Shown here piece after piece: positions 500 to 7,309 of a DNA stretch of 8,333 nucleotides. The notes below the pieces were generated by a model. It saw only the letters and a program-made list of their open reading frames with translations, searched no databases and had not been told where the DNA came from. How positions within the stretch are numbered: the stretch's first letter is position 1; every line of letters begins with the position of its first letter. A program made the position numbers and the translations under genes. The stretch is from a virus (Duplodnaviria; Heunggongvirae; Uroviricota; Caudoviricetes), in the IMG/VR virus record IMGVR_UViG_2698536369_000014; one strand, written 5' to 3'.

Positions 500-593
500 A
501 GCCTCACCTCCGCAAATAACGGATGGTGTACACGGTTCGGAACGAAGAGGAAAGGTATAGAAGTTACATTAGCGTAAGGCTTGAACATCTATT

Positions 594-626
594 CAAAAAG
601 AAAAACGCCAGCGATTATTCTGGCGT
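594..626 (-). terminator. Intrinsic terminator on the minus strand, between the AppY-like gene and the holin
   Basis: 7-bp GC-rich stem ACGCCAG (605-611) / CTGGCGT (620-626) with an 8-nt loop, followed on the minus strand by TTTTTCTTTTT (plus-strand A-run 595-604). Confidence 0.55.
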
Positions 627-687
627 AGCTGAAAGCATCATACAATTATCAAATACGAAAATTACAAAATCATTAAAACGCATCACG

Positions 688-1418
688 TTACATCATGTCT
701 TTTTCTAAAAAAAATCTTGATGAATATTGATGGGGAGGAACACCAAAATATCTTCTGAAAACACTTACAAAATATGACGTGTTTTCATAACCGCATATCT
801 CAGCAACTTTTCCAACAGAATATAAATTGTAGCTTAATAACCTTTCCGCCATCACCATTCGCTCTTCAAGAATTAACTTACTAAATGATAAGCCTTCGTG
901 CTTTAATTTTCTTTTTAACAGACTTTCACTCAGATACAGTCTTGAAGATATATCACAAAGTCTCCATGCTGCAGATATATCCGTGTGAATAATAGCCTTA
1001 ACTTTACTTCCTAAACTATTAAGACATCCAAATAAAAAACTTTGCACTATTTTCTCTGAAGATAAGATAGCAAGACATGCAAGTGATATTTGATTTCTAA
1101 CAAAATCCACAGTTCTGCCATCACAATTCAAGCATGCAATCAAGTTCTTTAACAATGAAAAATCTTCACATTCCACCATCAAGTATGCCGGATAAAACCT
1201 TCTTACAGAAAAAGATGAGAGTGTGTTGCTTTTAAAGAAATCATTAACTGTTTTCTCTTCAACATCTACGATCATTACATGATCTATATTTGATGAAAAA
1301 AATCTTTTAAATTGTAATCAATGAGAACAGCACTTCCTTTTTTAAACAAAGTATCTTCTTTACCAATTCGGACATCAAACGAGTTCAACACCAAAATGAT
1401 AGAACATATGTATGGCAT
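688..1418 (-). pseudogene. AraC/XylS-family regulator of the AppY/YdeO/GadX type, split by a frameshift: N-terminal 43-codon ORF (1287-1418) and C-terminal 195-codon ORF (688-1275)
   Basis: C-terminal ORF carries an AraC-type HTH. Upstream ORF MPYICSIILVLNSFDVRIGKEDTLFKKGSAVLIDYNLKDFFHQI* has AGGTGG ribosome-binding site and resembles the AppY N-terminus (MDYVCS..SFD....FKK). The two frames are joined by adding one base at the A7 run 1296-1302, giving ...KDFFSSNIDHVMIVDVEEK... Confidence 0.6.
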
Positions 1419-1769
1419 ATTATCCACCTGATATCATTGGGGTTACACCAGGTAAGTATAGGTGGAAAATCAATATTCGCCAGTTCAACAATAAGGAAAA
1501 TCTCATTGCATCACAAGTATAAAATTATGTATTTAACTCACAAAGACAAATTATTAAACCAATCTGTTATATTATATATAGCTGCGTGGAATCATAATAT
1601 TATATATTTTGACTGGCATGTTTACCAACTTTAAGTTGCATCTCAATGGTTTCTTCAGCGTAAACAGAGTTTTTATACAAACTGACACTCTGGGTATCAT
1701 AGTGTAGTTTTTACGATTGTAAATATCCTGCATGCAGGAACTCATCCTTTTGGATGATATCGCATACAA

Positions 1770-2729
1770 TTAATTTACCATCAGTCTTAGAGCCAGTTCG
1801 TCCGGATAGGGATCGAAGTAATTCTGTGTAAGCAAGTAATCATTAGGATACTCACCCAGATAATGCTTCAGCAGAGTCAACGGCGCAAGAAGAGGTAATG
1901 TGCCAGAACGATAGTTAAGTATAACCTCGCTCAACTCTTTACGCTGGCGTGTACTTAAGTAGTTACTAAAATACCCCTGTATATGCATCAGCACATTCGT
2001 GTGATTTTTACGTGACGCAGGTTTTCTGAGAATCGCCATCAGCTTATCACGATACACCTCAAAGTATGATTCAAGGTCCGCCCACTCGTGTATTGCAGCC
2101 ACAAATGGTCCCATATCTTTATAGCCTGCCTGACTATGCGCCAACAACTGAAGCTTATAACGACTATGAAAAGCTAATAACTCTCTTCTTGATAATTTCT
2201 CCTTGTAAAGGTGATTGAGCTCATGCAAAGCAAAAACTCTTTCAACAAAATTCTCACGAAGCACTGGATCATGTAATCGCCCATCCTCTTCAACCGGTAG
2301 CCAGGAAAACTTTTCCATCAAAGTGCTCGTAAATAGTCCCACTCCATCTTTACGACCTCGATTACCATTTTCATCATAGACACGCACGCGCTCCATGCCA
2401 CAGCTGGGAGATTTAGCACAAACCACAAACCCCGATACATCCTTTAATTTGTCCATATAAGAACGACTAAACTCTGTCATTCTCTCTGTCACATCCTCAT
2501 TCTGGTCGTGGCTGAAACACATCCGTATATTTCCTTGCGTCGAGCGCACAAGACGTAGAGCAGGACGCGGAACTGGCAGCCCTATAGCCATTTCCGGACA
2601 TACTGGTCTGAATGTTACCCATTCCACTAATTTGTCCATTAAAAAGTCAGCTCTTTTGTGACCACCATCAAAACGAACAGCAGAACCGGCCAAACAACCG
2701 CTGATTCCAATCACAGTTTTTTTTATCAT
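1770..2729 (-). CDS. TudS(DUF523)-DUF1722 fusion protein, 319 aa; putative [4Fe-4S] desulfidase of the RudS/YbgA family
   Basis: N-terminal half has Cys12 (GISGC), Cys44 (RPVCPE) and Cys104 (VVCAKSPSCG), matching the three-Cys cluster ligands of TudS. C-terminal half has YbgA/DUF1722-like motifs (LLAPLTL, YFDPYP). Strong ribosome-binding site AAGGGGGAG before the ATG at 2727-2729. Gene is AT-rich. Confidence 0.8.
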   Translation of the reverse strand: MIKKTVIGISGCLAGSAVRFDGGHKRADFLMDKLVEWVTFRPVCPEMAIGLPVPRPALRLVRSTQGNIRMCFSHDQNEDVTERMTEFSRSYMDKLKDVSGFVVCAKSPSCGMERVRVYDENGNRGRKDGVGLFTSTLMEKFSWLPVEEDGRLHDPVLRENFVERVFALHELNHLYKEKLSRRELLAFHSRYKLQLLAHSQAGYKDMGPFVAAIHEWADLESYFEVYRDKLMAILRKPASRKNHTNVLMHIQGYFSNYLSTRQRKELSEVILNYRSGTLPLLAPLTLLKHYLGEYPNDYLLTQNYFDPYPDELALRLMVN

Positions 2730-2839
2730 ATTCTCCCCCTTGACTAATTCATTAACACATAAACTGTGTAGTGCACGGAATAAATTGCCTTTCTGGCGTC
2801 ATCACTGACAATTTTTCTGTTATGGACTATTCCTAATAT

Positions 2840-2889
2840 AGTATGAAAGTTCTTTAAGTGATCGGTCGTAATCATCTATCTTTCATACT
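2840..2889. promoter_or_regulatory. 10-bp perfect inverted repeat (AGTATGAAAG ... CTTTCATACT, 30-bp spacer) in the divergent promoter region between the desulfidase-like and Blc-like genes
   Basis: Arms at 2840-2849 and 2880-2889 are exact reverse complements, 33-82 bp upstream of the Blc-like ATG. Confidence 0.25.
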
Positions 2890-2921
2890 TACTTTCAACT
2901 ATCAAAAGTACAGGATTTATT

Positions 2922-3446
2922 ATGAAGTTATGGCCTGTGTTGACTGGCATTGCACTCTCTTTCACTCTTATAGCATGTAAGGCCCCGACACCACCTAAAG
3001 GTGTGCAGCCGATTACAAATTTTGACGCCAACCGCTACCTCGGAAAATGGTATGAAATAGCTCGCCTCGAGAACCGGTTCGAACGTGGTCTGGAACAGGT
3101 CAGCGCTACTTATGGAAAACGGAACGACGGAGGGATTCGTGTACTTAACCGTGGATACGATCCAACGAAAAATAAATGGAGCGAGAGCGAAGGTAAAGCA
3201 TACTTTACTGGAGATACTAAAACTGCAGCGTTGAAGGTTTCGTTTTTTGGCCCCTTCTATGGTGGCTATAATGTAATCAAACTGGATGATGAGTATAAGT
3301 ATGCTCTTGTCAGTGGTCCGAACAGAGAATACCTATGGATTCTGGCAAGGACCCCAACTATTCCAGATAAAGTAAAAGCAGACTATGTGCGAACCGCTCA
3401 AAAGTTGGGATTCAATGTCAATGAATTATTATGGGTTAAACAATAA
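2922..3446 (+). CDS. Outer-membrane lipocalin lipoprotein, Blc-like, 174 aa
   Basis: Signal peptide with lipobox LIAC (Cys19). Motifs NFDANRYLGKWYEIARLENRFERGLE and KVSFFGPFYGGYNVI...YLWILARTPT align with E. coli Blc at roughly 55-60% identity by eye, so this looks like a diverged paralog, not chromosomal blc. Confidence 0.85.
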   Translation: MKLWPVLTGIALSFTLIACKAPTPPKGVQPITNFDANRYLGKWYEIARLENRFERGLEQVSATYGKRNDGGIRVLNRGYDPTKNKWSESEGKAYFTGDTKTAALKVSFFGPFYGGYNVIKLDDEYKYALVSGPNREYLWILARTPTIPDKVKADYVRTAQKLGFNVNELLWVKQ

Positions 3447-3472
3447 AATCCCTACCCGAAATAATACTTATT

Positions 3473-3502
3473 AGAAAAAAACCAGCCTTTGGGGAGGCTG
3501 GC
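3473..3502 (-). terminator. Intrinsic terminator on the minus strand about 100 nt downstream of Q (tR'-like)
   Basis: Stem CCAGCCT (3483-3489) / AGGCTGG (3496-3502), loop TTGGGG, followed on the minus strand by T7 (plus-strand A-run 3475-3481). No U-run on the plus strand, so it is unlikely to serve the Blc-like gene efficiently. Confidence 0.6.
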
Positions 3503-3601
3503 TAAATCAGGAAACAAGCTGTTATATGATAATAACTACGTTGCGATTCCAACATTTAAAATGTTAGACTAATGAGAATCAGACAGCAACTTTTCCTTTA
3601 A
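3503..3601 (-). promoter_or_regulatory. Putative late promoter pR' and Q-utilisation region
   Basis: Position only: between the Q stop and the tR'-like terminator, as in lambdoid phages. Candidate minus-strand hexamers TTGCTG-17 bp-TAACAT and TTGGAA-15 bp-TATCAT; not confidently assigned. Confidence 0.3.
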
Positions 3602-3979
3602 TTATTTCGAACAATCAGCATCCATCTCCAATCGGAGATCCAACACCATCAGCATACCCTCCACTACGCCCTCAGCTTTCTGGAGCATCCTGCCAACCCA
3701 ACAATCAGATCGCCCATGCTTACGTGCAAGCGCCATAAAAGTCATGCCGCCGACATAATAGTCCACCAATAAATCATGCAAATCGCTGTTGTTCTTTTTC
3801 AGACGGGCCATGCACCCGCAAATGATCATCGCGTCATCGTCACAACATTGTGGGCGAGATTTTACTTTTGAAGGAATTAATCCCTTAAAACCGGCGGCAA
3901 TGGACGACCAGGTCACATCTTCATGATTATTAGCCGCCCACGCTCCCCAACGCTCAAGACCCATCTGAATATCACGCAT
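3602..3979 (-). CDS. quuD: Late-gene antitermination protein Q (phage 82 / DLP12 QuuD type)
   Basis: [62 protein letters not shown]... is near-identical to K-12 QuuD as recalled. Start taken as the ATG at 3977-3979 (GGAG ribosome-binding site upstream), not the TTG-extended ORF ending at 3994. Confidence 0.9.
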
Positions 3980-4064
3980 CAACTTACTCCACAAAACTCA
4001 GACCAGAACGCCAATTACAAGCAAAAATCAACAAAACAGTATTAGTTGATTGTTATCTCTGACT

Positions 4065-5590: not shown

Positions 5591-5619
5591 GTCACCGGAG
5601 TTGTTCAGGCTCCGGTGAC
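5591..5619 (-). other. Perfect 10-bp-stem hairpin (GTCACCGGAG / CTCCGGTGAC, 9-nt loop) between ybcM and ylcH
   Basis: Exact inverted repeat read directly from the sequence. It lies 65 nt downstream of the ybcM stop and about 24 nt upstream of the ylcH start. The downstream minus-strand sequence is only partly U-rich (TTCTGCGCT). Confidence 0.3.
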
Positions 5620-7258: not shown

Positions 7259-7309
7259 AAAATACGTGACATACACCATTTTGCTCATAATAATTTGTCA
7301 CGTATTTTC
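7259..7309. promoter_or_regulatory. 13-bp perfect inverted repeat (AAAATACGTGACA ... TGTCACGTATTTT) about 215-270 bp upstream of ybcL
   Basis: Arms at about 7259-7271 and 7297-7309 are exact reverse complements separated by 25 bp, in an AT-rich intergenic region. Function unknown (operator-like or structural). Confidence 0.25.

Follow-up and report, generated by a model that had tools for sequence, protein, structure and literature searches.

The lipocalin gene that runs against the late operon of the prophage described here is best understood as a prophage moron, with a probability of roughly 0.7. In this reading, it encodes a Blc-type lipocalin with a Blc-like pocket and a predicted outer-membrane location, it stems from a divergon that has lost its regulator, it has a promoter of its own, and the inverted repeat upstream of it is incidental. 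A lipocalin moron in phages is already known in the literature: in the accessible part of Mathieu et al. 2020 (PMC6969025), a moron termed 'blc' is reported for over 50% of the 19 lambda phages from the gut. RefSeq annotates the phage gene as 'lipocalin family protein', and it corresponds to PHROG 2809.

Prophage setting and cargo genes

The window, i.e., the whole stretch of 8,333 nucleotides that was analysed, belongs to a DLP12-like lambdoid prophage whose late operon occupies the minus strand. The lipocalin CDS (2922..3446, plus strand; 174 amino acids plus stop), an open reading frame backed by Pfam, NCBIfam and PDB matches, is the sole plus-strand gene in the window. Across an intergenic gap of 192 bp it diverges from a minus-strand gene (1770..2729) for a RudS-type tRNA 4-thiouridine desulfidase, in which TudS/DUF523 is fused to DUF1722 (Pfam 2-thiouracil-desulfurase and DUF1722). 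The earlier note on this DNA had described the lipocalin as a prophage gene that points against the late genes and diverges from a desulfidase gene, and this arrangement is borne out. Both genes are part of a cargo (moron) block, which extends approximately over 515..3479 between the Q terminator and the holin and also contains a frameshifted AraC-like gene. Homology of K-12 DLP12 to the window ends at ~514, and in K-12 DLP12 the same slot, between quuD and essD, holds nmpC plus IS5. The antiterminator Q of the late operon is encoded at 3602..3994 on the minus strand (Pfam Phage_antitermQ). Downstream of it, a terminator scan identified a GC-rich hairpin followed by a T-run (3480..3503, minus strand), which is a candidate late-leader terminator (tR'). 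The folding energy of this segment is -14.9 kcal/mol (z -4.05) for the minus strand and -13.3 kcal/mol (z -2.44) for the plus strand, where it follows the lipocalin stop codon as a hairpin without a U-tract.

The third cargo gene (688..1419, minus strand), a YdeO/GadX-like member of the AraC family, is disrupted by the loss of one nucleotide in a T8 run (~1297-1303), as judged by comparison with the intact gene of another locus (L001, 243 aa). Its GC content of 32% differs from that of the lipocalin (44%) and RudS (43%) genes, which suggests a separate origin; the flanking phage genes Q and rusA, with 48% and 52%, respectively, are richer in GC than all three, as fits a moron block. Precedents for envelope-protein genes in or beside the Q-to-lysis region are nmpC of DLP12 and bor/iss of lambda-like phages, which are likewise oriented against the late operon and atypical in composition. 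These morons encode a porin or the Bor lipoprotein rather than a lipocalin, whereas the cargo described here is a three-gene block that includes an eraser of a tRNA modification.

Phage 1H12 and the Lambda_ev phages carry the same cassette and match the window over 1653-3600 at 91.5% identity; their AraC-like gene is intact, unlike that of the window. Over the lipocalin gene, the copies in loci L002 and L072 show no differences. The RudS protein of the window is 93% identical to the Lambda_2E9 copy and falls into an allele group that includes phage 1H12, the enzyme of which, RudS_vir, was tested and characterised by Jamontas et al. 2024 (PMC11417400). The accessible part of that paper gives Cys12, Cys44 and Cys110 as the cluster-binding cysteines of RudS_vir, and C12, C44 and C110 can be read in the translation of the window's gene. 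In the accessible parts of PMC6969025 and PMC11417400, neither a link between lipocalin and RudS nor an origin from a MerR divergon was found, and the literature search yielded no paper that ties a lipocalin to a lambdoid antiterminator or holin. The phiv142-3 paper was set aside as irrelevant, lipocalin appearing in its reference list only.

A Blc-type lipoprotein

Pfam Lipocalin_2 covers residues 35-174 of the protein (E 7e-44), i.e., the lipocalin fold is present. The NCBIfam model of the Blc subfamily (NF007786; curated cut-off 267 bits) aligns over the full length with 316 bits, and Blc chains in the PDB match residues 16-174 with E-values of 1e-66 to 1e-69. The signal peptide (2922..2978, plus strand), read from the translation, ends in the lipobox L16-I17-A18-C19, which is intact, as had been claimed; the N-terminus reads MKLWPVLTGIALSFTLIAC-K. 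The codon of Cys19 is 2976-2978, and the residue at +2 is Lys. According to the +2 rule, Asp at this position alone keeps a lipoprotein in the inner membrane; with its non-Asp residue, the lipocalin is thus predicted to be sorted to the outer membrane. A Shine-Dalgarno-like AGGA (2912..2915, plus strand) can be read directly 6 nt before the ATG and is kept in all relatives.

The comparison of the ligand pocket with that of Blc, which the earlier note had proposed, was carried out for the 19 Blc residues within 4 Å of the heme/vaccenate ligand (PMC8177097). Eighteen of them are identical in the phage protein, and the remaining one is a K77R substitution. Over the mature proteins, 97/155 positions are identical, and the enrichment of identities in the pocket has a hypergeometric P of ~0.001. 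As the pocket matches that of Blc, the same activity is expected: by analogy with Blc, the lipocalin may bind lysophospholipids, fatty acids or other hydrophobic molecules of this kind on the inner side of the outer membrane.

A second lipocalin lineage and the origin of the cassette

The lipocalin shares 59% identity with chromosomal E. coli Blc at the protein level and ~66% at the DNA level; it is a second lipocalin, as first proposed, and not a duplicate of the host blc. Both proteins belong to the same fold family, have the same length and align without gaps (Blc: PDB 1QWD, 2ACO, 3MBT), and both possess the lipobox Cys19 and the motifs GxWYEIAR, FYGGYNVI and YLWILxRTP. They differ at +2, which is Ser in Blc, and at position 84, which is Asn in the phage protein; blc resides in the locus frd-ampC-blc-sugE, in contrast to the prophage location of the lipocalin. 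Identity to the ampC-linked lineage as a whole is 57-61%, whereas a second lineage in the Enterobacterales (lineage B) reaches 74-82%. The chromosomal members of lineage B share diagnostic residues with the phage protein (LVAC-K, ARLENRFERG, VLNRGYDP, ALVSGPNR), and both lineages are present in genera such as Buttiauxella and Scandinavium. In these alignments, the phage lipocalin is a paralogue of blc, not an orthologue, and a member of the MerR/RudS-linked lineage B. Its description as a diverged protein is overstated for a member of a well-populated second Blc lineage with a nearly unchanged pocket.

On chromosomes, the lineage B lipocalin diverges from the gene of an MlrA-like MerR regulator; RudS is encoded nearby on the opposite strand, and the upstream region is homologous to that of the phage copy. 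The neighbours are arranged as MerR-[transthyretin-like]-RudS in Enterobacter, Leclercia, Buttiauxella and Raoultella and as MerR-SnoaL-SDR-oxidase-DUF1365-CFA synthase in Cedecea and Scandinavium. The window's RudS is 69-73% identical to the RudS proteins of the chromosomal lineage B loci, and the sequence upstream of the phage lipocalin can be aligned to the intergenic region between merR and the lipocalin gene on chromosomes. Unlike the chromosomal loci, the phage cassette contains neither the MerR gene nor the transthyretin-like gene, and it has lost the ACTAC repeats that are conserved in the chromosomal intergenic region. The GC content of the phage lipocalin gene is below that of the chromosomal lineage B copies, and synonymous sites are saturated between them, so that the capture cannot be dated nor the donor genus be named. 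Upstream of RudS, the chromosomal copies share a strong promoter block that contains a dyad, to which the phage sequence aligns poorly, and alignment of these regions did not locate the exact junction of the merR deletion. Judged by gene order and homology, lipocalin and RudS_vir probably entered the phage as a pair from a single chromosomal divergon, the regulator being lost. The phage cassette would then be a MerR divergon minus its regulator, moved into the cargo slot between Q and its terminator on one side and the holin on the other.

Candidate promoters

A consensus promoter scan of the plus strand upstream of the lipocalin revealed no strong sigma-70 promoter. A candidate comes from the alignment with the chromosomal relatives: CATACTTA at 2884..2891 (plus strand) is aligned to their conserved CTACACTTA block, which it matches in part, and may, by homology, be the -10 element of the lipocalin promoter. 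CTACACTTA is also found upstream of E. coli blc, and a -10 element of the CTACACTTA type thus occurs in both lipocalin lineages; an rpoS mutant shows reduced blc expression (PMC4512719). In the phage, positions -13/-12 of this sigma-S-type element are altered from CT to TC, or to TA in one allele, and the lipocalin promoter may therefore be weak or located elsewhere. In the leftward direction, TATATT or TACTAT on the minus strand (2835..2843) is a putative -10 element, which aligns with an invariant AATATA block beside the merR start in the chromosomal relatives. The only nearby hit of the scan, a minus-strand 9/12 match (TTGAAA-16-GATGAT from 2898 to 2871), was rejected because its -10 begins with G. 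In the lysogen, a weak promoter that belongs to the lipocalin itself and is probably of the sigma-S type would most likely drive its expression, and during lytic growth Q-modified late transcription would cross the gene in antisense direction.

The inverted repeat

The perfect 10-bp inverted repeat described in the earlier note is present: its left arm AGTATGAAAG (2840..2849) and right arm CTTTCATACT (2880..2889) are fully complementary and separated by a spacer of 30 nt. It exceeds chance expectation at most weakly. Such a repeat arises in ~1% of dinucleotide shuffles of the 192-bp intergenic region, and the shuffled 8.3-kb window contains on average 0.79 perfect 10-bp repeats with spacers of up to 60 nt; the real window contains four separate ones. 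If the candidate -10 elements are right, the right arm would overlie the lipocalin -10 and the left arm would abut what is left of the earlier merR promoter.

The interpretation of the repeat as a sign of dedicated regulation found no support, and neither did the expectation that it would be kept in close homologues: its symmetry decays, and it is perfect in the commonest allele only. Among 82 loci, complementarity is 10/10 in 65, 9/10 in 11 and 8/10 in 6, a comparison of low power because these loci fall into no more than three main allele groups. The 8/10 form is that of phage 1H12 and the Lambda_ev phages. Substitutions in the arms affect 17 loci and are never compensated (left arm, T>G at 2844 in 16 loci and G>A at 2845 in one; right arm, C>A at 2884 in 6); in one locus (L082), the end of an IS element abuts 2844. 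Between the two main alleles, the arms differ at 2/20 positions and the whole intergenic region at 21/192, i.e., the arms evolve at roughly the rate of the remainder. In the chromosomal relatives, ~2/10 positions are complementary, as counted by hand on the intergenic alignment.

A genuine operator newly formed in the phage lineage, at which a dimeric AraC-like or host regulator co-ordinates both genes, would fit the perfect symmetry in most loci, the central and locally improbable position between divergent genes and the presence of a regulator gene in the same cassette. This regulator gene, however, is frameshifted in the window and in several other loci, where the repeat is unchanged, and its GC content points to a separate origin. 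No further copy of the arm motif, with one mismatch allowed, was found in the whole window, including the region upstream of the AraC-like gene, which argues against a dispersed operator motif. Comparison by eye of the intergenic sequence with the GAD box (GadX/YdeO-type) and the MlrA box gave no convincing match. Together with the uncompensated decay of the arms, these observations make an operator unlikely.

Alternatively, the repeat may act at the level of RNA, as a hairpin in Q-dependent late read-through or in a long RudS leader that influences processing, stability or pausing. Late transcripts of the minus strand must cross it, and the 60-nt segment folds better than shuffled sequences (plus strand, -11.6 kcal/mol, z -3.0; minus strand, -12.4 kcal/mol, z -3.8). 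The stem is AU-rich, however, with a 30-nt loop, and the substitutions break pairs rather than covary. The Rfam scan of 2600-3700 (E up to 1) returned no match to the repeat and two sub-threshold chance matches near the terminator. Moreover, the mRNA of neither gene would contain both arms if the candidate -10 elements are correct. A role as an RNA hairpin is accordingly given little credence, clearly less than an operator. As it is not conserved, the repeat is probably not a regulatory site, although its perfect symmetry in the majority allele, its local improbability and its folding make a lineage-specific function conceivable.

Distribution and selection

Of the 5426 complete E. coli genomes, 1037-1133 (~1/5), among them laboratory B and C strains, possess the cassette; 12 phage records and at least 129 stretches in IMG/VR also contain it. 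The window's Q allele is nearly always accompanied by the lipocalin (1085/1133 genomes).

The loss of MerR, the alteration of the ancestral -10 at -13/-12 and the negative scan for a consensus sigma-70 promoter could indicate that the lipocalin is silent, decaying E. coli cargo with a degenerate promoter and no role for host or phage, and lesions are indeed frequent in the neighbouring cargo genes. The coding sequence speaks against such decay. Residues 1-174 are encoded at 97-100% identity in 80/80 IMG/VR loci examined, comparison of phage alleles gives a dN/dS of 0.07 with a dS of 0.18, the pocket is conserved, and the open reading frame is intact even where IS elements have removed RudS. 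The lipocalin is under purifying selection, and decaying cargo is the least probable of the readings weighed here.

Biological implications

As first described, the finding carries very little weight: the gene is real but ordinary, and the inverted repeat does not resemble a regulatory site. One modest point that emerges is that the phage lipocalin represents a distinct MerR/RudS-linked lineage and is not a drifted copy of blc. About one fifth of complete E. coli genomes carry the cassette, despite the statement in the accessible part of PMC11417400 that E. coli is devoid of RudS homologues.

A parallel to the chromosomal loci of Cedecea and Scandinavium is provided by the lipocalin Smlt2367 of Stenotrophomonas maltophilia, which belongs to the sigma-E/ChrR regulon and has genes for a CFA synthase and an oxidoreductase alongside (PMC11832516). 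It is induced ~165-fold upon removal of the anti-sigma factor ChrR, and the ChrR system is named for singlet-oxygen stress (PMC11832516). The likeness is one of family and gene context, and the regulator is an ECF sigma factor as opposed to the MerR protein of lineage B. With the exception of PMC11832516, the literature search found no lipocalin in a LitR or photolyase cluster.

It is conceivable, although doubtful at present, that lipocalin and RudS form one portable module against near-UV or photo-oxidative stress, derived from a divergon of Enterobacter-type bacteria with an MlrA/BluR-like MerR regulator; once this regulator was lost, the module would no longer have responded to the signal that first controlled it. 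RudS would strip the photosensitive s4U from tRNA, and the lipocalin would deal with lyso-lipids or damaged lipids in the outer membrane region. If so, lysogens (~20% of E. coli, including B and C) would be protected constitutively or under sigma-S control, and the cassette would neatly illustrate how a stress module can become prophage cargo.

The prophage lipocalin and its genomic slot

The window is E. coli prophage DNA, lambdoid and DLP12-like, the late operon of which is read on the minus strand. From the left end, it holds a partial rrrD (lysozyme), the P21-type holin gene essD (284-499), a YdeO/GadX-like AraC-family gene (688-1419, minus strand), a DUF523+DUF1722 gene of the tRNA 4-thiouridine desulfidase type (RudS; 1770-2729), the lipocalin gene (2922-3446), which is the sole plus-strand gene, and the antiterminator gene Q (3602-3994), followed rightward by ylcG, rusA, ybcO, ninE, ybcN, ybcM, ybcL and a partial ybcK. 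A single match spanning at least 80% of the window is found in 81 complete E. coli genomes, with 99.4-99.5% identity among the matches listed. Homology to the DLP12 prophage of K-12 ends at ~514; the K-12 slot between quuD and essD is filled by nmpC and IS5, likewise on the strand opposing the late genes, whereas the window carries the lipocalin/RudS/AraC-like block at the equivalent position. GC content is 44% in the lipocalin gene, 43% in RudS and 32% in the AraC-like gene, and 48-52% in Q and rusA.

The lipocalin ORF encodes 174 residues with, as the earlier note had read from the sequence, an intact lipobox (L-I-A-C19). The residue following the lipidated cysteine decides lipoprotein sorting (+2 rule); it is Lys in the lipocalin, the predicted destination of which should accordingly be the outer membrane. 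The protein matches Pfam Lipocalin_2, passes the NCBIfam Blc subfamily model at 316 bits (curated cut-off 267) and matches solved E. coli Blc structures (E 1e-66 to 1e-69). Its alignment to chromosomal E. coli Blc, represented by the copy at the frd-ampC-blc-sugE locus, is free of gaps, with 59% identity; the gene is therefore no duplicate of host blc. The ligand pocket, defined as the 19 Blc residues within 4 Å of the ligand (PMC8177097), is identical at 18 positions, the exception being K77R, as compared with 97 of 155 positions in the mature proteins (P ~0.001); the divergence from Blc falls outside the pocket.

A second lipocalin lineage and the origin of the cassette

Beyond E. coli prophages, the nearest relatives of the lipocalin share 74-82% identity. 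The genes of Enterobacter (seven species), Leclercia, Buttiauxella and Raoultella are divergent from one for an MlrA-like MerR regulator; behind the latter come a transthyretin-like gene (at most of the loci) and a gene for a 319-aa DUF523+DUF1722 protein. Cedecea and Scandinavium have SnoaL-like, SDR, amine-oxidase, DUF1365 and CFA-synthase genes downstream of the MerR gene instead. The ampC-linked Blc lineage of E. coli, Salmonella, Citrobacter and others has merely 57-61% identity to the window lipocalin, and both lineages are present in Buttiauxella and Scandinavium. The window RudS is 69-73% identical to the DUF523+DUF1722 proteins of the MerR-linked chromosomal loci, and the 5' flank of the phage lipocalin gene can be aligned to the chromosomal merR-lipocalin intergenic region. 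Homology and gene order are most simply explained if the phage block represents the chromosomal divergon minus its regulator and, where present, the transthyretin-like gene. Alignment of phage and chromosomal RudS upstream regions did not locate the deletion junction, and saturation of the synonymous sites between phage and chromosomal copies means that neither a capture date nor a donor can be assigned.

The upstream regions of the chromosomal RudS genes (loci L089-L098 and L084) share a promoter block of strong conservation. Within it lies an imperfect dyad, AATACTTGGACAAAT...TTGTGTAAGTTTTAG, plausible as a candidate operator for the neighbouring MlrA-like regulator; the phage copy aligns poorly at this block. 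Upstream of the window RudS and pointing to it, positions 2766-2776 (minus strand) read GTGCACTACAC, identical to the conserved -10 block of the chromosomal lipocalin genes (TGCACTACACTTA), which may be due to chance or may be a remnant of rearrangement when the cassette formed.

The inverted repeat between the divergent genes

The lipocalin and RudS genes diverge across 192 bp, and this gap does contain the reported perfect 10-bp inverted repeat, AGTATGAAAG (2840-2849) and CTTTCATACT (2880-2889), with a 30-nt spacer. The sequence observation of the earlier note thus holds and its interpretation is supported in part; the repeat, taken there as a sign of regulation, is most likely incidental. 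It is statistically unremarkable when the whole window is scanned, where dinucleotide shuffles yield a mean of 0.79 perfect 10-bp repeats and the real sequence holds four separate ones; in the 192-bp intergenic region alone, such a repeat arises in ~1% of shuffles. Across the 82 related loci compared, from phages and prophages, the arms are perfect in 65, 9/10 complementary in 11 (2844 T>G in ten, 2845 G>A in one) and 8/10 complementary in six, which combine 2844 T>G with 2884 C>A, the allele of Lambda_2E9 (L002) and phage 1H12; none of the 82 shows a compensatory change, leaving 17 with uncompensated arms. Comparison of the most divergent pair of phage alleles gives 2 differences in the 20 arm positions and 21 in the 192 positions overall, so that, on these counts, the arms change at the same rate as the entire intergenic region. 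The corresponding positions of the chromosomal relatives, counted by hand on the intergenic alignment, are ~2/10 complementary.

These uncompensated changes, the equal rate and the chromosomal non-complementarity argue against a regulatory dyad. That the repeat is an operator specific to the phage and serves the AraC-like protein is hence unlikely, although the perfect repeat is the majority allele and the main allele groups number just three. The same allele distribution, together with a folding z of about -3 to -3.8, could be invoked for an RNA hairpin, which is nevertheless very improbable given the uncompensated arms. The arm motif has no additional copy elsewhere in the window, and an Rfam search gave no match at the repeat. 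The AraC-like gene carries a frameshift, one T being lost from a T8 homopolymer (~1297-1303); in about eight other IMG/VR loci, the match to the intact protein starts only at residue 36-41, the same spot, and this shared break point suggests recurrent slippage or sequencing error.

What the arms overlie can be read from the chromosomal relatives, in which two blocks are near-invariant across genera with variable sequence between them: CAATATACTACGAAT, beside the merR start, and TGCACTACACTTA, ~30 nt ahead of the lipocalin start. The latter includes CTACACTTA, which fits the sigma-S-type extended -10 consensus; the identical nonamer lies upstream of E. coli blc. In an rpoS mutant, blc is down-regulated (PMC4512719). 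The right arm covers the phage version of the second block, TCATACTTA, homology to which marks CATACT (2884-2889) as the candidate -10 of the lipocalin gene. The left arm adjoins an invariant AATATA, on the minus strand TATATT, a good candidate for the -10 of the former merR promoter that could now drive RudS. Since the arms overlie or adjoin homologues of conserved promoter blocks, the repeat appears to sit in the promoter region, with a symmetry that looks accidental. Both chromosomal blocks contain repeated ACTAC cores that the phage copy lacks; speculatively, these served the absent regulator and were lost for this reason.

Other repeats occur in the window. The AT-rich stretch preceding ybcL contains a perfect 13-bp inverted repeat, longer than that upstream of the lipocalin (7259-7271 / 7296-7308; AAAATACGTGACA / TGTCACGTATTTT; 24-nt spacer). 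A perfect 10-bp repeat (449-458 / 505-514) pairs the essD Shine-Dalgarno region with early essD coding sequence and could be a translation-control structure for a dual-start holin (MKSM...). On the minus strand, ybcM is directly followed by a GC-rich 10-bp hairpin (5591-5600 / 5610-5619; GTCACCGGAG / CTCCGGTGAC) that has no obvious T-run.

Distribution and selection

Of 5426 complete E. coli genomes, 1037-1133 carry the cargo block, strains B/BL21(DE3), C and HS among them, as do at least 129 IMG/VR stretches. The lipocalin falls into PHROGs family 2809, annotated as of unknown function. Among the morons (prophage cargo) of 19 gut lambda phages, passages of Mathieu et al. (2020, PMC6969025) list "blc, a bacterial lipocalin", present in over half of these phages. 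The lipocalin is a known, widespread prophage moron of the second Blc lineage. Among phage alleles, dN/dS is 0.07 at dS 0.18, indicative of purifying selection within phages; because of this selection, the gene is unlikely to be silent cargo.

The lipocalin is intact where RudS has been truncated or replaced by IS3, IS1 or another IS. In B strains (L169, a BL21(DE3) derivative), RudS is truncated by IS3, so B-strain laboratory hosts would express at most the lipocalin alone. In strain TBU0218 (L171), IS1 replaces RudS and homology to the window starts at 2867; in the IMG/VR locus L082, the RudS side is replaced from 2844, within the left repeat arm, by sequence resembling an IS end, and the contig stops 160 nt beyond. 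The Q allele and the lipocalin (window 3250-3750) are both covered in 1085 of 1133 matching genomes; as this allele hardly ever occurs where the lipocalin is missing, Q, leader/terminator and lipocalin appear to be inherited as one block.

E. coli plasmids carry a third set of lipocalin genes (matches H67-H75; 364 plasmid places) with 67-73% DNA identity to the window gene, which we presume to be Citrobacter-derived blc beside blaCMY-type ampC. A 2113-bp contig of a "Candidatus Nanosynbacter" MAG (L088, JARKOR010000135.1) encodes a lipocalin with 99% identity to that of the window; the contig is almost certainly a misbinned fragment of an E. coli prophage.

The RudS neighbour

Phage 1H12 and eleven other phage records are 91.5-99.3% identical to the lipocalin/RudS part of the window. 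The DUF523+DUF1722 protein of 1H12 is the "RudS_vir" of Jamontas et al. (2024, PMC11417400), passages of which report that RudS enzymes strip 4-thiouridine from tRNA and lessen UVA-induced growth delay, that RudS_vir is active, though weaker than the other enzymes assayed, and that RudS genes often reside in light-responsive, MerR-controlled operons, Enterobacter cloacae among them; lipocalins are not mentioned in these passages. They also state that TudS and RudS homologues are absent from E. coli, contrary to which ~19-21% of complete E. coli genomes carry the prophage cassette; the gene beside the lipocalin is mostly annotated there as a YbgA-family (DUF523+DUF1722) protein.

That lipocalin and RudS form a single functional module against near-UV or photo-oxidative damage is a tentative and rather doubtful proposal. 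It is supported by their common origin, by Stenotrophomonas, where removing ChrR, anti-sigma factor in a system that takes its name from singlet-oxygen stress, strongly induces a lipocalin within a CFA-synthase operon (PMC11832516), and by MerR-dependent blue-light responses in Vibrio (PMC5241685).

Transcription in the prophage

A 9-bp GC-rich hairpin (3480-3503; -14.9 kcal/mol, z -4.05), with a T-run behind it on the minus strand and no U-tract on the plus strand, lies ~100 nt downstream of Q. In lambdoid phages, the late-leader terminator tR' is expected at such a distance, making the hairpin a candidate tR'; the lipocalin gene would therefore lie just past the terminator and converge on it. 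Upon induction, the lipocalin gene would be traversed antisense by Q-modified polymerase, which would go on to transcribe RudS and the AraC-like gene in sense, and transcription of the lipocalin from its own promoter would be a feature of the lysogen.
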